In this document: piece after piece, positions 1 through 62,629 of the stretch
Numbering within the stretch: position 1 is the stretch's first letter
Layout: every line of letters begins with the position of its first letter
DNA from: Eledone cirrhosa
Taxonomy: Eukaryota
Length of the DNA: 64,000 nucleotides
Assembly (NCBI GenBank): GCA_964016885.1
Contig: OZ024742.1
Location: forward strand, 7,626,001-7,690,000
Direction: 5' to 3'
Notes under the pieces: generated by a model
Database searches by the model: none
Seen by the model: the letters and a program-made list of their open reading frames with translations, nothing else
Told to the model about the DNA's origin: nothing
Program-made: the position numbers and the translations under genes

Positions 1-2416
1 ACAGTCAGACGGTAGTAGATGACGGACGCGATGTACGCGTTCGCCATCTCCGCCCGACCTTTCTGTGATAGCTTCATCCCAGCCCATTTCTGGGTGAGAC
101 TGGCTAACCTGCCCGTCACCTCGTCCCAATTCTTATCCACCTGGAGGTCTGGCCCGAACCAAACCCCTAGCAACTTTACCGGTCCGTCCGTCCAGCGCCT
201 AACGACGCTGTTGGACGGCATGGGCTTGCCTCTCCAGGTGCCGAGTTGCAAGCCTACTGACTTTTCCGGGTTAAGTTTGCTCCTGTCCACCTTTTATATT
301 CCTCCAATAAGTTGCCAACCACCTCGATTTCTGAGGTGTCCGACACCATCACGGTGATGTCGTCTGCATAAGCCGACGCGGCTTTTCCGCGTGCCGGTTC
401 GAGCGGGATGCCCTGCAACAGCTCTAGCTTCGGCAGTAAAGGCTCGAGAGTCAATACGTACAGAAGGGAGGAGAGAGGGCACCCTTGACGGACCGATCGG
501 GAGACCTGAAACGGTTCCGAGAGGTGGCCATTAATATTGACCATCGAGCAGGTGCCGCTGTGCATTGCTGCGATCCATCTTCTGAAGACGGGGCCGAAGC
601 CAGCCGCCTTGAGGACAGCCTCCAGGTACCGATGGTGGACCCTATCGAATGCTTTCGATTGATCTAAATTGATCAGAGCCCCACTGAAGCCAGGTTTACA
701 CCCTACCCTCTCTATGATGTATCGTATTAGGTGGAGGTTGTCGTGTATGGACCTGGTTGGGATTGCGCAAGTTTGCGCCTCCCCAACCAAATCCCCGACG
801 ACAAGCGCCAACCTCTTCGCTAACACCCTGGCCAAAATCTTAAATTCTGTGTTGAGCAGAGTTATGGGCCTGAAATTGTCTAATGTGTCCCTCTTGTTCT
901 CGTCTTTCCTTATCAGTGTCACTACGCCCTGGCTCACAGAACCGTTTTGCTGCCAGTTGCAGTAGAGGGCTTCGAGGAGATTGGAGAACAAGTCTGGCAT
1001 ATTTACGTAAAGCAGACCATCTAAACCGGGTGACTTGCGCCTCATGCAGCCGACAAGGGCATCCTGAATCTCGGCTGAAGTAATTGGCCTTTCGCAGTGC
1101 CCAGCGTCAGCCCTCGAGAGTTGCGGCAAGCCATCGAGGTAGGGACTGAAGTCCGTGACCATCTCTGACCCGCCACTTCCCCCGAACAACCGAGCAAAAT
1201 GTTGGCGAAAGGCTTCACACATCCTCTTGGAATCGCTTAGCTCGTGCCCGTCTCGGTCCGTCAAAGACCGAATCGTGGTTTTATTACCACGCTGCGCCTC
1301 TGCCACGCGGGCCCATCGAACAGCTTTGGTTCTTTCGTTTCTCAGAGCACGTGCCTTAGCTCTGACAATGCAACCTTCGTGTTTCGCATTGAAGAAATGG
1401 TCTAATGCTATTCTCGCCGCTAGCACATCAGTTGCAATGCCACTACCAATAGCCTCGTCTAACTTATCTACCAACTCTCCCTCTTTTCTATTTTTCTCTA
1501 ATGCTACTTCTTTGCTAAACTCTATCGACATTACTCTAATCTCTCTTTTGAGAGCCCCCCCCCCACCACCACCACTACCATCTATTGTTGACGACTCCCC
1601 CTGTCAACTTTTTCTTAACTAAATTGTTGACCTGGTCCCTGTAAGCCTTACGTGCCGGAAATGACATGTTTAGCTTCCAGTAACCAGGTCCTAACCTACG
1701 CGTCTTATCTAGGTCGACCATACAGATCACAAACTTGTGATCTGAATAGGCGACTGTTTCAAAACGTGGACAGCTTATACTATTTCTGTCTATTTTCCTA
1801 ATGAATATCCTGTCTATATACGATCTAGATGACCCTATGCGGTTAGCCCAGGTCCACACTGGCGCATTAGGGAAATCTAGTCGGTACCTGTCAGACAGTT
1901 GGAACTGGCTGATCAGGTTCTTGAGGCTTTTGCAGCCCCCGCTCCTATCGGATACTCCCACACAGTCCCAGCGTGCGTCTAAGATGCCGTTCCAGTCCCC
2001 GCTAACAGTAAAGGGCGAGACGTACTCAGAAAGGCTTCCAGGCGTCTAAAGAAGTCCGGCCGTCCTGCCCCAGTAGGAGCATAGACGGCCACCAGTCTAA
2101 AGGCACCACCTTCATTATTGTTCACGTCCAGGACCACCAACTTCCCGTCCGGGTCCCGGAAGATCGACCTTACCTCGAGATCCAGGCCTTTCCTAAACAG
2201 CACTGCCACCCCGTCTCCCATTCCCGGCCGGCTAACAGATGCAAAGATCTGATAGTCGTCGAAAATGGGGGCTAGTGCGCGCGTGTCGGAAATCCTGGTC
2301 TTGCCGACTGCAATTACATCCATTTCTATAGACCTGAGGTCGTTGAGCAGGTGACTCTGCTTCCAGGACGATCCCAGGCCTCGAACATTTAAACATCCTA
2401 CTCTTAATATGGCCAT
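1..2416 (-). pseudogene. ORF2 (APE endonuclease + reverse transcriptase) of the Tx1-like LINE, frameshifted
   Basis: Pieces 1979-2416, 1575-1961 and 254-1531 are consecutive parts of one ORF2 in different frames. Motifs: KSPGLDGL, NFRPITLLN, DQSKAFDRV, QGCPLS, YADD. Confidence 0.92.
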
Positions 2417-5479: not shown

Positions 5480-8400
5480 ATTATGTTCGTCTACAGCGTG
5501 ATAGTGCCACACTAAAATCACCGGCGGTGATGAAATCACCGGTGGTTATGTAACCATACATTCACCAATCCTCGATACCTAAACAGTTCGAATAACGGTG
5601 AAGTGGAGACTGGAATGTCATGTGACAGACTCTCACCCAGCAGGTGTTCCTTGACTCAGCAGCAGGGACCTGGCTGTCAACCAAATACTTCTGGTGTCGG
5701 AGGAAGAAGAAGAAGGAAAGGGATCAGAACCAACTGGACGAAAGAATTGAATAGAACTGTTATGCAATGTTACCTGAAGAGTAACCCCAAGGAGAAAGCC
5801 TATAGGAAACAGATGCATAACATCTGGAACGAGATTGATCTATTTAAATTAGATGAACAAAAATTGGCCGGGCAGGATCGGGTAAGAAGAACTAATGGGT
5901 GGATAAGAGAGCTGGAACTGGAGGAACTGAGCAGAGAGATTAGGTTGGAAATGGAGGGTGAAGTATGTCAGGCAAACGAGCCAGTGGGAAATGAAGGTGA
6001 AGAGGTTGAGAGAACGGAGGAACCATCCGAAGTAGACAATGATCTGAATGCTGAAATAAATAATACCTGGAACAAGGATACGACCATTGAGGAGATGAAT
6101 GCTGACGGGCTAGGACAAGATTTGGTTGATATCCTAAACTTAGTGGTAGATGAATTGAACAATGATATTGGGAAACCTATGAACCTAAGATTTGTAGACA
6201 GGAAAAAGTTAAAAGAAACAACAGCTAAGGTAAACAAAGTCACCCCATACCTTGAGGCGAGGAGCCTTCACCAGTGCAACAATATCTTCAAAGCAACAGC
6301 AAATTCGGTGAGGAAATTACTTGGCATAAAAGCGAGAAGAAACAACAAACAAGAAAAATCAGAACCTTGGTGGAAGAAACGACTGAATGGTCAAATCAGG
6401 GAAATGAGAAATAACATTGGAAAGCTTGAGTCCCTACTGAATGGGACACTAAAAAACATAGACACTAAAAATAGACTGGAAATAAAGTACAAAACTAGGA
6501 GGAAAAAGCTAAATATTATCATAGAGGAACTGAAGCGACGCATTGTAGTAAAGAGTGCAAAAATTAGGCGATACGAGAGCAGAGTCAGTCAGTATAGACA
6601 GAACCGCATGTTTGACAACAACCAGAAGATGCTGTTTGGACAGCTTGAAGGGAAAGAAAGAGGCAACGACTTGATCCCTGAGGCGGAACAAACTAAGACA
6701 TTCTGGAGAGGAATATGGGAGCAGGATGTTAAACATAATGACCAGGCAGTGTGGATTGAGACAGTACAAAAGGAGATTAGTGAACAGGCACACCAACAAA
6801 CTGATTTGAGTATCACAGTTGAAACTCTTAAGGGGCAGGCCAAAAAGCTAACCAACTGGAAATCACCAGGCCCAGATGGTGTGCAGGGGTATTGGATTAA
6901 AAATATAACATCCCTCCACCCGAAACTGACAACCATGTTCAATGACTGCTTGATGTCAGGTGAGGTACCAGAGTGGTTGACAAAAGGTATCACAATTCTG
7001 GTAATGTAAGACCGAATCATGGGTAATGATGTTACCAACTATAGACCTATCACGTGTCTGTCCGTAATGTGGAAACTGTTGACAAGCATTATGTCTGAGG
7101 AAATCTACCATCACCTCCACACAAACAACTTGTTACCGGACGAACAGAAAGGATGCCGAAAGAAGTCCCGTGGTACAAAGGACCAGTTACTTATTGATAA
7201 GATGGTAATGAGGAATTGCAAGAGGAGACACACTGGTCTTGACATGGGATGGATAGACTACAAAAAGGCATTTGACATGGTGCCTCATTCTTGGATCACC
7301 AAAAGCCTAGAGATCTTCAAGGTGGCAGATAACATCAGACAGTTGTTGGGCAAAAGTATGAAGTCCTGGAAAACAGAATTAACATCAGCTGGAGAATCCT
7401 TGGGAGGCGTGAAGATCAAGAGTGGTATCTTCCAGAGAGATAGTCTGTCCCCTCTGTTGTTTGTCCTTGTCCTGATGCCCCTGACCATTATACTGCGAAA
7501 AGTGAGAGCAGGATACAAGTTGGGAAAGGGAGAGCTTACCATCAATCACTTCCTCTTCATGGACGATCTTAAGCTCTTCGGGAAGAGTGAGAAGGAGTTG
7601 GATGTGCTTGTTGACACTGTCTGTATTTTCAGCAATGATATATGTATGCAATTTGGTATTAGCAAGTGTGGAGTCCTTGGGATGAAGAGGGGTAAATTGA
7701 GCAGAAGCACCGGAATCCAGGTACCAGCAGGTGGGATGATAAAGGAAATTGACACTGAAGAAGGATACAAGTATTTGGGTGTTCTGGAGGCTTATGACAT
7801 CAAGAACAAAAAAATGAAGGAATTGATAAGATCTGAATACATTCGGAGAGTAAGGAACGTATTAAAGTCACATCTGAACAGTAGGAATGCCATAAGTGCA
7901 GTAAATTCCCGAGCTGTGTCTATTATTAGGTACAGTGCGGGAATTCTGAGATGGAATGTTGCTGAACAAAAAGAAATGGATAGGAAGACTAGGAAGCTAT
8001 TGACTATCTACAACATGTCCCACAAGAGGAGTGATGTCGATAGACTCTACTTAAGGAGATCTGAAGGTGGAAGAGGTCTTATCAGCATAGAGGACTGTGT
8101 TCAGATGGAGAAAAACAACCTACACAAATACGTGACTGATAGTAAGGAGCCAATGCTCAGAATTGTACTAAAGGAGAGGACAATAGACCAGGGGATGTCC
8201 AAGGAGGAAATAACAACAAGGAGAAAGAGCAACCTTCATGAAAAATCCCTTCATAGTACCTTCTTTGAGAAAACTGAATTCAGAGATCCACAGACTTGGA
8301 ACTGGTTGAAAAGAGGAGACCTTAAAAAGTCTACAGAAGGAATGCTAATGGCTGCGCAAGAGCAGGCCCTCAAAACGAAGTGGTTGAAACACCATATTTA

Positions 8401-9091
8401 CAAGGAGGAGGCTAGCCCACTGTGCAGGATCTGTGGAGAGAGAGAGAGGAGACTGTGGCTCACACTGTATCCGAGTGTAAACACCTAGCCCAGACTCACT
8501 ATAAGGGCTGGAGACATGATGTGATAGGCAGGGTGATCCACTGGCACCTATGCAATGTAAACAATTTACCACATTCTGAGAAGTGGTATGAACATAAGCC
8601 AGAGTCGGTGATAGAAAACGATCAGGTGAAGGTGCTGTGGGATTTGAGGATACAGACGGGTAAGAAACTGGAACACAATAGACCCGACCTGGTGGTTTTG
8701 GACAAGGAAAAAAGATCGTGCCTGATTGAGGATGTGGCCTGTCCATTCGACACGAGAGTGCAAGAAAAGGAGAGGGAGAAAATTAACCGATACCAGGATT
8801 TAAAGCGGGAGGTAAAAAGGATCTGGAACTGGCATGAAGTCAAAGTGGTCCCGATTGTCATAGGCGCACTAGGTACTATCTCAAAAAGTTTCTAGGGATG
8901 GTTAAAGAAAATTGGCCCCGCCACGCTTTTTGGAACGCTACAAAAGCATGCTTGCTGGGAACAGCAAGAACCCTCCGATACGTCCTGAATATCTGAGGCT
9001 GCAGGTAGTGGCTTGATATTCTTTTCAACAAACTTTCCAGTTAACTAACATCAATGACTGAGTCTCAAAGAACAATAATAATAATAATAAA
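5480..9091 (+). mobile_element. R4/Dong-like non-LTR retrotransposon (RT + restriction-like endonuclease); 5' boundary approximate
   Basis: Single-ORF layout with RT, a CCHC-like finger and a PD..D RLE domain, followed by a short 3' UTR and an (AAT)n tail at about 9073-9091. Dong-type elements are known to target TAA repeats. Confidence 0.85.
5603..8996 (+). pseudogene. RT-RLE polyprotein with premature stops (7007-7009, 8893-8895) and a frameshift in the (GA)n run near 8440
   Basis: Motifs: [82 protein letters not shown]. Confidence 0.9.
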
Positions 9092-37996: not shown

Positions 37997-38306
37997 GGCT
38001 CTGTAGTATACTAGTCATCCTACGTTGAGCTAAAACCACACTGTCATACCAAGGGAAATATATCTACATGTCTGGGCATATTGATATATTTGTCAACGAA
38101 ATATATATATATATATATAGATAATTTAATATATCAACTAACATAAGCGCACAGATGCACGCCTATGCCAGAAAATACACAGGTTATGTCATAGTACCTA
38201 GGTGGTTCAATGCAGGAGGATGCAGAACAATAATATATAAGACGTAAAATAAAAAAATCTTTTTAAAAAAAATTTTTTTTTTAATTTTTTACTTACTTAA
38301 ATTTTC

Positions 38307-38388
38307 ACTCCAACTAGTTAGTTTCTGCAATGGGATAAAGACAGTTACGTAATCTAACTGTCGAGAATTCATTGCGTCATCAGGGAGT
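38307..38388 (-). ncRNA. Type I hammerhead ribozyme (element A, copy 1)
   Basis: actcc CUGAUGA c-gcaatg...cattgc-a GAAA ctaactag UU ggagt. Confidence 0.8.
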
Positions 38389-38869
38389 CTATTCTCAGCT
38401 AAGTCTCCAGGCAATGCGCGGACACTGGCGGCTCATATAAAAATAATAATAATTCGGTAGATGGAACAGCTAGCGAGGACTGAATTCCATGCACTGAAAT
38501 CCTCACTGCTTCTAGTCAAATGGCCGATTCTAAAGAATCAATCACGTGACACAGAGGCTAGTCAGAAGGAATGGGATGGTAAGATGACTGACGCCTACTA
38601 ACACCCCCAAAAAAAATTTTTTTAGAAGTGGTTTTGGCAGGTTTGCTCGACAAATCAGTGATTTGGAGATAAATATAGATAATTTAATATATCAACTAAC
38701 ATAAGCGCACAGATGCACGCCTATGCCAGCAAATACACAGGTTATGTCATAGTACCTAGGTGGTTCAATGCAGGAGGATGCAGAACAATAATATAAAAGA
38801 CGTAAAATAAGAAAATCTTTTTTAAAAAAATTTTTTTTTAAATTTTTTTACTTACTTACTTAAATTTTC

Positions 38870-38951
38870 ACTCCAACTAATTAGTTTCTGCAATGGGATA
38901 AAGACAGTTACGTAATCTAACTGTCGATAATTCATTGCGTCATCAGGGAGT
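38870..38951 (-). ncRNA. Type I hammerhead ribozyme (element A, copy 2)
   Basis: actcc CUGAUGA c-gcaatg..[gacagtta-gattacg-taactgtc]..cattgc-a GAAA ctaattag UU ggagt. Confidence 0.85.
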
Positions 38952-39060
38952 CTATTCTCAGCTAAGTCTCCAGGCAATGCGCGGACACTGGCGGCTCATA
39001 TTATTTTTTTATATGAGCCGCCAGTGTCCGCGCATTGCCTGGAGACTTAGCTGAGAATAG

Positions 39061-39142
39061 ACTCCCTGATGACGCAATGAATTCTCGACAGTTAGATTAC
39101 GTAACTGTCTTTATCCCATTGCAGAAACTAATTAGTTGGAGT
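39061..39142 (+). ncRNA. Type I hammerhead ribozyme (inverted arm of element A)
   Basis: Same fold on the plus strand; CTGATGA at 39066 and GAAA at 39124. Confidence 0.85.
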
Positions 39143-39210
39143 GAAAATTTAAGTAAGTAAGTAAAAAATTTTAAAAAAAGTTTTTTTAAAAAAGATTTTC
39201 TTATTTTACG

Positions 39211-39287
<77 letters not shown>

Positions 39288-39411: not shown

Positions 39412-39447
39412 TCTTAACGTTTCGGGCGCTAGTCCTTCATCAGAAGA
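39412..39447 (-). ncRNA. Minimal Penelope-type hammerhead, in a probable pLTR remnant (about 39320-39850)
   Basis: tctt CUGAUGA aggactagcgccc GAAA cg UU aaga; stem III (AACGUU) is palindromic. Confidence 0.75.
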
Positions 39448-43918: not shown

Positions 43919-44249
<331 letters not shown>

Positions 44250-54242: not shown

Positions 54243-54735
54243 AAATATTAATAATAACATTCGATTCGTTTGCAATTATGCATCAAGCCTCAATTGTATA
54301 GCCATGTCATTAGAATGAACACTTCGTTCATGCTCTTATGTTGGCATGCAAACAGAACTGCAGACACTAATGTTTCTGGGTATCACTCTTCATCAGTAGC
54401 CTACTGTTCACCTGCCAAACTGTCAGACCTAGTGAAAATATATGCTATTTTCAAAAATACGCAGTGACTGATCGGCCTGTCTGATAATATGCAAATCAGG
54501 CCGTTCAGTCACTGTGTATTTTTGAAAATAGCATATATTTTCACTAGGTCTGACAGTTTGGCAGGTGAACAGTGGGCTGTACTGATGAAGGGTGATTACC
54601 AGAAACATTAGTGTCTGCGGTTCTGTTCGCATGCCAACACAAGAGTAAGAATGAGGGGCTCATTCTACTGACATGGCTATACAATTGAGGCTCGTTTGCA
54701 TAATTGGAAACGAATTGAATGTTATTATTAATATT
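54243..54735. mobile_element. Large fold-back insert (family F), arms about 240 bp, axis near 54488, an HHR in each arm
   Basis: Imperfect inverted repeat next to (TA)n and (GA)n tracts. Confidence 0.8.
54567..54628 (+). ncRNA. Type I hammerhead ribozyme (mirror copy 54351-54409 on the minus strand)
   Basis: gaacag-tgg-gctgta CUGAUGA ag-ggt-gatt-acc-a GAAA cattagtg UC tgcggt-t-ctgttc. Confidence 0.8.
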
Positions 54736-56945: not shown

Positions 56946-57567
56946 CATTGTTATACTTTGGGAGGGTCATGTTGCCAATAATTATTGTCAACATGAGCCT
57001 CCCAAATTATAACAATATCGGTTTCAACACATGTTTTCAGATAAAGAATCTTGCTAAATAAATTCAGAAACGAAATATATATATATACATATATACATAT
57101 ACACACATATACATGCATACCCACAAATAGCCCCACACACATCACCACCCACACCTACACATATACATACCCACATACATACACACTCACACACACGCAC
57201 ATATATAAAAATATATAACAGTATATGTATATATAGAGAGAGTGGGGGGAGGGAAGGTGTGACGGGGAGAGAGGGTTGAGAAGTGTACTGGTTAACATAT
57301 ATGGACATATTTCATATAATTATATAGATCCTTTAAATCTGAATCGCACTGTGTTGGTGCCATTGATAATATATATACATATATATATATATATAATAAA
57401 GAATTCATATCTAGTAACATATATATACATACAAATGCACATCGATGGTAGCAAATATATAGGTTTTGTCTTAATAACATTGTGGTTCAATGCATGGGGT
57501 TGCAGAACAATAATATAAGAGACGTAAAATAAGAAAATTATAAAATTAACTTACTTACTAAAATATC

Positions 57568-57649
57568 ACTTCCAACTAATTAGTTTCTGGAATGGAGTAG
57601 ATACATCTTCCGAAGAAGGTGTTGAGAAACATCCCGTCATCAGGAAAGT
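57568..57649 (-). ncRNA. Type I hammerhead ribozyme (element B, copy 1)
   Basis: actttc CUGAUGA c-gggatg..[acaccttc-UUCG-gaagatgt]..cattcc-a GAAA ctaattag UU ggaagt. Confidence 0.85.
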
Positions 57650-58089
57650 CAATTCTCATATAAGTTTCCAGGCAAAGCGAGGACACTGGAAGCTTATTAA
57701 AAAATAAATCAGTGAATAGGAAATAGCAAAGCGTGGACTTAATTCCTAGCCATTGAGAAAATCACTGCCTCTGTGTCCGTGGCAAATTCAAAAAGAATCG
57801 AACACGTGACATCGAGGTCAATCGGTGGAAGGTGGGTTGTTAATAAGACAGCGGCCAGCCTACTACTGTAGCAGCAGTCATTGCCAGTATTGCTCGACAA
57901 AAGATTTGGAGATAATAATAAAGAATTCATATCTAGTAACATATAAATACATACAAATGCACATCGATGCTAGCAAATATATAGGTTTTGTCTTAATAAC
58001 ATTGTGGTTCAATGCATGGGGTTGCAGAACAATAATATAAGAGACGTAAAATAAGAAAATTATAAAATTAACTTACTTACTAAAATATC

Positions 58090-58171
58090 ACTTCCAACTA
58101 ATTAGTTTCTGGAATGGAGTAGATACATCTTCCGAAGAAGGTGTAGAGAAACATCCCGTCATCAGGAAAGT
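58090..58171 (-). ncRNA. Type I hammerhead ribozyme (element B, copy 2)
   Basis: Same fold, 522 nt from copy 1. Confidence 0.85.
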
Positions 58172-58214
<43 letters not shown>

Positions 58215-58222
58215 GAAAGTCA

Positions 58223-58253
<31 letters not shown>

Positions 58254-58556
58254 CATATACATATATGTACATTATTATTTTTTTTTTGGGGGGGGGGGGG
58301 TCATATTGTTATATTTCCAGAAATATATAATAAATCACTCAGTTTTGTTTGGGTTCATTTTCGCTTCTGTATCTTTTATATCTCTATAGTTAATTTATCT
58401 GGCAATCAATGTTTATACGTGATTGACCACTGGTTAAAAATATAGATATAAATATATATATACTGTCTATCAAAATTATTTCATCACACACCCGTGACAT
58501 CATCAGTGGTATTATTATCTTTCCTCCCGCTGTATTGTATCGCGTCTACTCCATTT

Positions 58557-59439: not shown

Positions 59440-59496
<57 letters not shown>

Positions 59497-59590
59497 TTAG
59501 TTATACTATTTATGGTTATGTAAATACAAAACCTTAAGCAGTTGTAAGTATTTTACACACACCCTAAATAGTGCGGCGCAGGTCACTGAT

Positions 59591-61054
59591 TTGGTCGGCC
59601 TATACCTCCTCAATGAAATCCATAAGGACCTCCCTTACCTCAACGGTGGTTTGTACCGCGATGATGCACTTCTACTTATAGAATATAAAAAATTTAATAT
59701 AGAAAGAACTAGAAAACAACTGCATAAGACATTCAAAAACTTTAACCTTAGTATCACCATGGACAAAAACACTAAAAATGTTAACTTCCTAGACGCCACA
59801 CTATACCTAGACTCAAAAATATATACACCTTTCCATAAGCCTAATGAGAAACTTATTTACGTAGATACCAAGTCTAATCACCCTAGATCAATATTAAACT
59901 CTATCTCTAAGGGGGTGTCCAATAGAATCTCTAGTCTGTCCTATGACGCAAACATATTTAGCAAAAACTCACAATATTACAATCAAGCATTAGCTAGCTC
60001 CGGCCATAATATAAAAATTGAGTTCCTACCTAAGAAAACACATAGCTACAACATCATCTCGCACAACATGTCCATGAGGAAATCTAATAATAGGAATAGC
60101 AACCACAAGTACACCAAAGCGGAGGGTGCCACCGGAAGTAACCATTACCATGGAAACTACTGTGGGGCCTTAGGAGGAAGCAACACACCAAACACTAAAA
60201 GCAAAAATAAAAGAAGAAATAATACATTTTTCAACCCTCCTTTCATCCTAAATGTCTCGACCAACATACCTAGGGCTTTCTTCTCACTACTAGATAAAAA
60301 CTTCCCTCTAGGACACAAGTACCACAACCTCTTAAACAAAAACACCATTAAAATCTCATACTCTACGACGCCTAACTTAGCATACCACATAGCTAGCAGC
60401 AATAATAGTAAAATTAGTTCTTACTTCCAACAAACAAAATCACAACGGGATGCAAACCCTCTAAATACCACTGTAGCAAGCAACCATAGCAACGGCAGTA
60501 ACAATAGAAATAACACTAGTATAAGTAATAACACCAGGGTTGTCAACCCGAACACCCAAAATCCTATATCCACCACACAGACTTCCGCATTGCATTATAA
60601 CCAGCGGACTAACGCACAGGATAATTGTAACTGTAGAGCTAATAGAACCTGCCCTTTAGATAAAAAATGCCTAACCAAGGATGTCATATACTCATGCACC
60701 GTCACGACTAATAACTCTTCAGAAACCTATGTAGGCTCCACTTCTAACTGCTTCAAAATCAGATATAACTCGCACATCCACTCGTTCAAAAAGCACAGCC
60801 TAGCCAACTCCACCTCACTTTCTAGCTACATACACTATCTAAAATCTAAAAATAAACCATACACACTCAAATGGGAAGTGATAGGAAGCGCGACCTCGTA
60901 CAAACCACCTAATAAATTCTGTAACCTCTGTATACTAGAGACACACAATATTATCTTCTCCAACCGTAACCTACTTAACAAAAAATCTGAGGTGTTTGCA
61001 ACTTGCCAGCACCGCCTCAGACATTCCTTCCAAAACTTTAAGCCCTATATATAG
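59591..61054 (+). CDS. Penelope-like RT (C-terminal half) + Cys linker + GIY-YIG endonuclease; N-terminus missing
   Basis: AQVTDLVGLYLL, YRDD, VNFLD, FHKPN..YV..SNHP, CNCRANRTCPLDKKC, VIY...YVGST, CNLC..E, LNKKSE..CQH. Confidence 0.9.
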   Translation: MVGLYLLNEIHKDLPYLNGGLYRDDALLLIEYKKFNIERTRKQLHKTFKNFNLSITMDKNTKNVNFLDATLYLDSKIYTPFHKPNEKLIYVDTKSNHPRSILNSISKGVSNRISSLSYDANIFSKNSQYYNQALASSGHNIKIEFLPKKTHSYNIISHNMSMRKSNNRNSNHKYTKAEGATGSNHYHGNYCGALGGSNTPNTKSKNKRRNNTFFNPPFILNVSTNIPRAFFSLLDKNFPLGHKYHNLLNKNTIKISYSTTPNLAYHIASSNNSKISSYFQQTKSQRDANPLNTTVASNHSNGSNNRNNTSISNNTRVVNPNTQNPISTTQTSALHYNQRTNAQDNCNCRANRTCPLDKKCLTKDVIYSCTVTTNNSSETYVGSTSNCFKIRYNSHIHSFKKHSLANSTSLSSYIHYLKSKNKPYTLKWEVIGSATSYKPPNKFCNLCILETHNIIFSNRNLLNKKSEVFATCQHRLRHSFQNFKPYI

Positions 61055-62498
61055 CAATGTCGGACTGGAACCTAACACCACATCTAGCATCAAACACCAG
61101 AGACACACCCTATACTACATACCCAACACTAGCTGATCCATTATAACACAAACAACGACATCCCTCTGGAACCCTTCGCAGGGAAAATACCCATTTATAC
61201 CTCTACGGCAGGTGTGACAACATCCACCCACTTGAACGGCACTACACCGCTCTAAGGGTAATTTGAGCATGAATTGATCGGTTGGATAGTGTTGGGCAGA
61301 GGAAACACCTTCCTTAGACAGATGTAAAATGAGTTAATCGAGTAGCGCTGTTGACCAGTAGGACCGGGCTGCTGAGCGCAGTGAGTGAATGTATTGCAAC
61401 TGCCGTGCGGGTTGTACGTATATGGATGATCTGACGGTCAGAGAGGGGTCGCGAGGACTGCGGATTGACCTTTGGCCTGCCTGGGGATGATTATCTTTCG
61501 ACATCCAATGTAGCAAGCGATGACCCAGATCTTACCAGAGATCATTGGGTCCTGAAGCAATCCTGCAATCACCGCGCCTGGTCATATGAGCAGACTACAA
61601 CCACAGAGATCATTAATTTAGAATCCTCGCTCATCATCTATAATTTCCATTTGTAGCACCTTAAGATGGGTTAATCCACCATAATAATATGATCACCTTC
61701 AGCATAACTTAGTTAAACTACTCTATAGTTAATACACTTTATGCTTTAAAAGTCTCTCTTGGAAGATGCGCATCACCATAGAATTTAGGGTCTATATTGG
61801 GACACATTTTAATGGCTAGATACAGAAACCCCAGAGTTACCTCCCCGCATGCATTAACTCCCCTTAGCCACACACACACTTCCGGGCGGTATTCAATGGC
61901 GTTTCTCGAAACGTAACAACCTCCTGTATCGAACTAAAGAACATCAGACTACGATCTCTAACTGGATTGTCGTGGATTATGTGAAGGGCATATAATCGAA
62001 ATATACACTCCCCTGACCATGAAAATGCCGAAGTACATGAAATACTTGACATCCCTGCGCTGTGCATCTCCAATACTTATAACACTTTTAATGCTTGCAC
62101 TATCTTTAATGCTTATAATATTTCTCCACACACAGACTATATCAATCATATAAAGAATTTGCCACCAGACCTACCAACCTAACACTCTTATTTACCTACC
62201 TAAGTGCCTCTACCACACATATCTCTCTGCCACACTATATAAACAAGACGCACATGCGTGCCACACATATAACATTTGCACTATATAACCACTTATCTTC
62301 ATGTTGTACTTTAACCTATATCTTTGATTTTTGATTGTACCTATTAATATAAATGTAATCTCGAAGTGTGTACTGCCACTCTAAATTCTGTAATGAATGT
62401 TGACCCACAATGTTTGAATATGTATCAATGTTTGAATATGTATTGGTATGTCTCTCGGCTGAAAAGGAGGTCATATAACTGTCCATGCATTAATAAAT

Positions 62499-62545
62499 TG
62501 CTCCGAAGAATCCAAACTTCGGTTTGGAGGAAACAGCTGTAAGCA
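62499..62545 (+). ncRNA. pLTR hammerhead ribozyme, CCGAAGA core variant
   Basis: tgct CCGAAGA a-tccaaac-UUCG-gtttgga-g GAAA cagctg UA agca. Confidence 0.8.
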
Positions 62546-62576
62546 CAATAATGTTTTGAACAGTTCTTTGATTCTT

Positions 62577-62629
<53 letters not shown>

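Follow-up and report, generated by a model that had tools for sequence, protein, structure and literature searches.

The window, the whole stretch of 64,000 nt that was analyzed, carries on its minus strand an insertion, called B here, that is bordered on both sides by (TA)n tracts. B is truncated at its 5' end, at position 58175, and an 80-nt piece precedes a unit that runs from one predicted hammerhead cleavage site (after 58096, in the upstream of two motifs) to the next (after 57574, in the downstream motif). The order of elements is helix I, CUGAUGA, a long helix II, GAAA, CUAAUUAG, GUU, and helix I; in the intact downstream motif we found a C·A at position 10.1/11.1, a helix IIa, an internal loop, a helix IIb with UUCG, and a palindromic helix III. 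Because of the 5' truncation, the upstream motif is without the helix Ib strand and the strand predicted to form a loop-loop kiss (see below), and with our covariance model R1 it scored 95 bits versus 124 for the downstream copy. Judged from its sequence, B is likely crippled by the loss of the upstream kissing strand; because those strands are missing and a second, internal site carries a substitution, this locus is probably a poor source of the 522-nt RNA, and intact tandem loci such as L030 are the better candidates. The unit contains no ORF of 120 aa or more, and the element is AT-rich, the GC content of the surrounding region being about 36%. The GTCACGTG block, which we take to resemble an E-box, might serve as an internal promoter element. 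A splice-donor-like motif (GUAAGU, GUAUGU, or GUAAAU; 57558-57553 in B) lies about 12-20 nt past the cut in all families; we rejected an intron reading of GUAAGU, as the candidate acceptor AG is not conserved.

Table. Positions in the window of B, its parts, and the related elements.
Feature	Position	Strand	Remarks
Whole B insertion	57393..58175	-	80 nt + 522-nt unit + 181-nt tail
B unit, cleavage site to cleavage site	57574..58095	-	522 nt; predicted RNA monomer or circle
Upstream type I hammerhead motif	58090..58171	-	CUGAUGA 58165-58159, GAAA 58109-58106
Downstream intact type I hammerhead motif	57568..57649	-	core 57643-57637
GAGAA strand, helix I internal loop	57653..57657	-	predicted kissing partner
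UUCUC strand, helix II internal loop	57624..57628	-	predicted kissing partner; upstream copy 58150-58146
Internal site complementary to cleavage/ligation junction	57819..57834	-	unit positions 262-277
GTCACGTG block	57803..57810	-	7 of 8 positions common to 13/13 subfamily units
Alternative fixed 3' end, +61 after cut	57513	-	24/42 B ends
Short duplicate of B 5' junction	58210..58224	-	(TA)n between duplicate and element
Element A, sister subfamily	38101..39220	-	563-nt unit, two direct motifs
Penelope-like element, 5'-truncated	59494..62584	+	RT C-terminus + GIY-YIG; ORF 59501-61054

The first-pass annotation had described B as a second element that shares six sequence blocks with element A and is otherwise diverged. 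All six blocks are present in both elements, and the 522-nt unit, the GUU site, the 82-nt motif length, and the palindrome CUAAUUAG are as it gave them, as are helix I (ACUUUC/GGAAGU in B, ACUCC/GGAGU in A), helix II (GGGAUG/CAUUCC in B, GCAAUG/CAUUGC in A), and the distal hairpins; one A copy, which has CUAACUAG, is an exception to the shared palindrome. The two elements are, however, colinear and 72% identical (372/515 aligned positions), and B is one of at least seven subfamilies of a single family. Element A also carries an inverted 5' arm with a third motif. When we scanned the 3.0-Gb animal assembly that holds the window with a pattern of core, gap, and palindrome, there were 9,138 exact matches and none to the reversed pattern; the matches listed include at least seven helix IIa types. 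From the loci sampled we recovered 106 cut-to-cut units, each of which holds a type I hammerhead, and such tandem hammerhead units support the view that this is a retrozyme-type element. Subfamily units measure 489-571 nt, 13 unit representatives are 71-93% identical to one another, and the copies are dispersed over many contigs as head-to-tail units without an ORF. Copies of B diverge by 2.6% on average (the 18 best-matching units, a sample biased to close copies), which indicates that B is young; it has at least 2,249 first-look candidates, a figure that may include sister subfamilies. Subfamily E is large, accounting for most of the first 100 of 564 matches in one scan.

With patterns that excluded the usual palindrome there were 120 and 49 matches; mutated copies of the A/B type made up many of these, but the scans also revealed four further families with the same layout and different sequence: Z (L113-L139), Y (L202, L206, and L207), W (L175), and V (L111). 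All four are non-coding and have a long helix II with a canonical or near-canonical closing pair; upstream of the Z motif are two blocks, which we presume to be CCAAT-like and CRE-like, respectively. At L204, L205, and L209 there are higher-order tandem arrays, with periods of about 2.3 kb or long runs of 525-nt units, which show secondary amplification at the DNA level. Among the sequencing runs listed for the family, none was recorded as RNA; contigs of unrecorded kind from four runs of one study contain the family, which bears on its presence and not on its expression. Three matches in a metagenome scan, none with helices I and II, and one in a viral scan were judged to be chance.

Other features of the window were noted in passing. 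A small-hammerhead family, in which position 10.1/11.1 is A·A and helix III is nearly palindromic, is represented at 54582 (+) and 54396 (-) and at L211-L240; it gave 2,615 matches versus 0 for the control and occurs as inverted-arm insertions in (TA)n, and a search of these loci for a link to an ORF found none. Minimal hammerheads lie on both strands at 44133-44194, as an inverted pair between (TA)n tracts that recurs near other loci, and a further minimal motif lies at 39416-39443 (-). A 22-kb satellite array at 14919-37258 holds 604 copies of a 37-bp unit with about 95% identity, and two reading frames with RVT_1 matches, at 254-1603 (-) and 7010-8488 (+), are probably LINE-type elements.

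The core boxes CUGANGA and GAAA and the NUH triplet occur in type I order, and the core is invariant in 29/29 representatives except at U7. In an alignment of 27 representatives (cluster medoids and hand-picked variants, 5'-truncated singletons being left out), 92.6% of 807 cells pair; the figure is 97.5-97.8% for helices Ia, IIa, and III, and again 92.6% for helix Ib, beyond the helix I internal loop, where there are no double changes. The covariation score was 0.224, as against 0.113 for shuffled alignments and 0.05-0.07 for slid partners. When changes were counted on the tree, pairs 40-90 and 43-87 of helix IIa and pairs 54-78 and 56-76 of helix IIb each showed two to three independent compensatory events, whereas the maximum among 2,478 unpaired column pairs was one. 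The recurrence of changes on both sides demonstrates that the distal helix, IIb, is real, and the counts in both helices bear out the earlier suggestion of selection on RNA structure. The difference in stem I between A and B that the first-pass annotation had counted as covariation consists of an inserted pair and a G·U change, with no double substitution at the level of the tree.

The distal hairpin itself proved to be different from what had been supposed. It does not make domain II branched; helix II consists of a stem, an internal loop, and a stem, and the hairpin continues it. Its sequence, loop, and length are variable, shrinking to about 4-5 bp in subfamily H, and UUCG is not conserved, being confined to some subfamilies and absent from A, D, F, H, and I. 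Because the hairpin varies so freely in sequence and length, a specific protein site in it, as had been proposed, is disfavored. More likely, the hairpin closes an internal loop whose 5' strand pairs with the internal loop of helix I. The first-pass annotation had also overlooked the 5' truncation of the upstream motif and the mismatch that replaces G10.1-C11.1, which is C·A in A and B and A·A in subfamily I, with G-C in Z and Y. G10.1-C11.1 is the most conserved pair after A15.1-U16.1 (PMC3088659), and natural U·U variants at the base of helix II are described as active (PMC3088659, PMC7229834); the axolotl HHR_Amex2 has such a U·U and works better as a dimer (PMC7229834, 10.64898/2026.07.22.740005). 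Rfam reported no hammerhead at the gathering score in the window, and none at E≤10 over 57300-58300. With our model R1, Y and W gave weak hits (E 4e-4 to 0.07), and 5/5 Z loci and V went undetected.

In their 5' strands, the internal loops of helices I and II are complementary to each other. The two strands are GAGAA(U)/(A)UUCUC in A, B, C, D, and F (GAGAAU/AUUCUC in element A), GGAAAA/UUUUCY in E, GAGUUU/AARCUC in Z, GGAAAAU/GUUUUCC in Y, and AGAAGA/UCUUCU in W. The complementarity recurs, in different sequences, in four families that look unrelated. The five outer pairs are kept in 26-27, 26, 25, 27, and 26 of the 27 representatives, cognate strands outpaired swapped ones (33/40,320 permutations with eight types, three of them related; 2/120 with five types), and in 16 of 18 representatives the distance from the core to the innermost pair is the same on the two arms to within 1 nt. 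Against shuffles the kiss was significant at 0.05 in 8 of 18 representatives, and the 5-bp kiss of B was not (p 0.25). There is one tree-level compensatory event in the kiss of the A/B superfamily, and copies with an uncompensated change exist among the 564 matches mentioned above. The usual non-Watson-Crick contacts between loops 1 and 2 were not found, loop II being an internal loop; mussel retrozymes, as far as the accessible part of that report describes them, likewise lack canonical loop contacts (PMC7229834). From this modeling we consider it quite probable that a Watson-Crick kiss of 5-7 bp, from internal loop to internal loop, is the general architecture, and are less confident of the kiss in B alone. 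The idea that the extra hairpin replaces the loop I-II contact is thereby turned around, since the contact is probably kept, in the form of the kiss.

The energetics are less simple. The B motif alone folded no better than shuffles (z -0.04 and 0.31), and the A motif folded better (z -3.0 to -4.2). With the kiss not counted, the hammerhead fold lay 0.6-10.2 kcal/mol above the minimum in 18/18 representatives, 2.5 in B, whose minimum-energy fold pairs the core box with the palindrome; in 26-27 of 27 sequences, CUGAU of the core is able to pair with the palindrome of helix III. For a dimer whose two cores are open the prediction was -53.2, versus -49.2 for two monomers and -61.2 for the best inactive dimer. 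Of nine Xenopus retrozyme dimers in a 2026 preprint, eight showed no activity in vitro (10.64898/2026.07.22.740005). The core hardly varies from family to family, which speaks for selection on catalysis.

The full B unit folds better than shuffles (z -3.2), and a consensus fold computed for 13 units pairs the sequence on either side of the cleavage junction with a site about half-way round the unit, which we call the lock. This internal site was the best duplex partner of the junction in 70/81 units, 4 of 85 without an anchor having been left out. Its position 7 is C in 51/52 copies with a 7-pair junction, which has an extra purine, and U in 99/106 copies with a 6-pair junction (12 of 170 copies were skipped); the site follows the changes in helix I, and the pattern reflects about two lineage events, one in B/E/G and one in a C-derived group. 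In circular folds the lock was dominant in 6 of 14 units, partial in 3, including the B copy, and weak in 5, and no lock helix was found in families Z, Y, and W. The B insertion differs here from 22 of 28 B copies by a single substitution. As modeled, the lock likely seals the circle, aiding ligation and blocking re-cutting; it could equally silence the ribozyme in linear RNA.

The ends of the copies point to the machinery that moved them. Downstream of the cut lie two homologous sites that are rich in AU and followed by (TA)n, and these account for 39 of 42 B ends and all 32 A ends; the B copy ends at the +181 site (57393), which is used by 15/42 B ends. An inverted truncated 5' arm was present at 18/30 B loci and 12/30 A loci, some of them overlapping. 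Inverted truncated arms and a tail from internal initiation of reverse transcription are described as marks of Penelope-like elements (10.1101/2021.04.23.441226, PMC11167929). Because copies start past the cut and cross intact junctions, we infer a template that was either circular or an uncut tandem, rather than a linear unit already cut.

A Penelope-like element lies 1.3 kb from B as a separate insertion, with its own hammerhead (CCGAAGA core at 62503), and elements of this type likely supply the enzymes for the retrozyme. The neighboring element is a truncated copy of an RT+GIY-YIG family with an 832-aa ORF, a 4,199-nt unit, a cysteine motif in the linker, and full copies at L177 and L178. 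This family is young, with an EN domain that is identical in at least 150 copies; in its hammerhead, helix III is palindromic, the base of helix II is an A·G, and the core carries U4C (CCGAAGA). Neither Pfam nor a PDB sequence search recognized the 832-aa protein, whose putative identity rests on motifs and on its Atlas neighbors (GIY-YIG, RVT_1, HTH_animal). A second Penelope-like family (L263-L291, up to 1.5 kb past the EN domain; 1,413 candidates) has two 3' end sites that resemble those of the retrozyme, and a GAAAC-palindrome-GUA half with a 6-bp flanking stem; a canonical hammerhead core was sought after its ORF and not found. Comparison of the A and B units with the neighboring Penelope family, the second family's 3' region, and the minimal-hammerhead family revealed no homology. 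The two autonomous families compared stand against 62,388 first-look EN candidates in the genome.

Retrozyme-Penelope composites were found at 2 of 140 distinct sites. At L292, inverted and forward pieces of the second Penelope family join a truncated retrozyme directly. At L294, a truncated retrozyme lies back to back with, and 10 nt from, a Penelope element that is likewise truncated and shares 81% identity with the first family; both end at their normal 3' ends in a microsatellite, and the missing parts were not found nearby. A single integration event that used both RNAs is the best explanation of these composites, with nested insertion followed by deletion as a possible alternative. In the main texts of the reports searched, no such composites are described.

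We propose that B is, on balance probably, one copy of a protein-free, non-coding tandem retrozyme that Penelope-like RT/GIY-YIG enzymes copied into (TA)n. The hammerheads of a transcript longer than one unit would cut it, probably while dimerized by way of the palindromic helix III, with the kiss holding helices I and II side by side and so making up for the weakness of the C·A closing pair. Once released, the 522-nt RNA would refold, and the internal site would pair across the junction, favoring ligation, perhaps of the RtcB type (PMC7229834), and hindering re-cleavage. A Penelope enzyme would begin reverse transcription at one of the AU-rich internal sites, +61 or +181, and would pass the junction one or more times, generating partial tandems. 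A broader joint reading is put forward more tentatively, as a possibility that we would not yet back: that the motif is an undescribed type I internal-loop kissing hammerhead, tolerant of N·A, invisible to Rfam, and used by at least four families; that the lock co-evolves with the junction; and that the composites are fossils of Penelope RT/EN copying retrozyme RNA in trans and switching templates.

A circle would be unnecessary if an uncleaved linear tandem RNA had been mobilized, with a hammerhead that is slow or silent and a structure and lock that serve recognition by the Penelope protein or suppression of cleavage. We regard this as unlikely, even though an anole Penelope-like element provides a precedent: unprocessed RNA was its main substrate in vitro and mutations of the core left its insertion unaffected (PMC11167929). 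The C·A closing pair, the lower energy of inactive folds, the nearly universal pairing of CUGAU with the palindrome, and the ability of the lock to form in a linear multimer too all fit such a silent RNA. They are countered by the core, triplet, and palindrome, which are near invariant across the diverged subfamilies and Z, Y, and W, by arrays of 3-6 or more units (L030, L059, L116, L205), for which a circular template is the simplest source, and by the abundance of retrozyme circles in coral, mussel, and axolotl (PMC7229834).

That the hammerhead is active and the kiss does not exist, the purine strand instead extending helix I by nested pairing and the distal hairpin being a separate module such as a protein site, seems to us decidedly improbable. 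In B, E, G, and C, a nested pairing that uses the U-rich 3' side of helix I scored equal or better over the stretch tested; in E, both strands of helix I changed together; and nested pairs rich in G·U are predicted by RNAalifold, a program unable to represent pseudoknots. Over 14 representatives, however, the loop II partner won in 10, tied with the nested one in 3, and lost in 1, and the stretch tested had clipped an outer G in the four ambiguous cases; G·U predominates among the nested pairs, whereas the kiss includes G-C. Moreover, Z, Y, and W retain complementarity with new sequences, and the variability of the hairpin described above does not suit a separate module. The alternative that an autonomous Penelope-like element yet to be found left the units as its solo terminal repeats, or that they are a satellite amplified as DNA, is very improbable indeed. 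Xenopus retrozymes do resemble Penelope terminal repeats (10.64898/2026.07.22.740005), and the comparison covered just two of the many possible autonomous families; against this, the copies are dispersed as ORF-free head-to-tail units with fixed 3' ends and variably truncated and inverted 5' sides, and in the only ORF-adjacent cases the ORF is broken at the junction.

The class to which B belongs, the non-LTR retrozymes, is known; the structural variant of the hammerhead is new. The metazoan examples share its non-coding, AT-rich tandem units with one type I hammerhead each and thousands of copies (PMC7229834, 10.64898/2026.07.22.740005), as well as co-occurrence with Penelope-like elements; unit sizes are 170-400 nt (PMC7229834) or 51-972 nt (10.64898/2026.07.22.740005), as compared to the range given above; the 522 nt of B exceeds the former and falls within the latter. 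This family differs from them in its long helix II with an internal loop and C·A closing pair, in a predicted Watson-Crick kiss instead of non-canonical loop 1-loop 2 contacts, and in its clear Penelope-type insertion anatomy and composite insertions. Pseudoknotted hammerheads are also reported in PMC11300833, and PMC6765202, PMC13725137, and PMC6962438 were compared as well. In pseudoknot-stabilized hammerheads of types I-III, base pairing between arms I and II replaces the non-canonical contacts, as it would here; stem lengths are constrained and core variants occur (PMC3088659), and the examples in the main text of Perreault et al. 2011 pair a terminal loop with a tail (PMC3088659). In type III hammerheads of toad and termite HDV-like RNA and of Drosophila pseudoobscura, the 5' strand of a hairpin-capped internal loop forms a pseudoknot with the other arm, the cap being on helix I and the partner the terminal loop of helix II (PMC7936874). 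In contrast, the motif described here is type I with a palindromic helix III, its cap is on helix II, and both partners are internal loops; the toad and termite motifs are thus a mirror image of this layout. No type I motif with two kissing internal loops was found in the main texts of the literature searched.

EN+ Penelope-like elements of the Neptune/Nematis type share partial tandems, an inverted 5'-truncated arm, and a palindromic helix III with the retrozyme (PMC4209133, 10.1101/2021.04.23.441226, PMC11167929), together with a tail from an internal RT start past the hammerhead and AT-rich or (TA)n targets. They differ in that the retrozyme has no ORF, has a full-size hammerhead rather than the minimal one that Penelope elements carry (Cervera and de la Pena 2014, PMC4209133), and has no detectable DNA homology to the two autonomous families compared.

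Penelope-like elements have been called the likely movers of animal retrozymes (PMC7761336), and non-LTR retrozymes have been proposed to be non-autonomous Penelope derivatives, a link for which the available part of the 2026 preprint gives phylogenetic support only (10.64898/2026.07.22.740005). Because Rfam misses the variant described here, censuses of animal ribozymes likely undercount. The kiss offers a clean test by compensatory mutation. The findings bear on which retrotransposon moves animal retrozymes, and on whether it does so via a circle; a young RT+EN family with an intact ORF, defined start sites, and the composites make this question directly testable in vitro.
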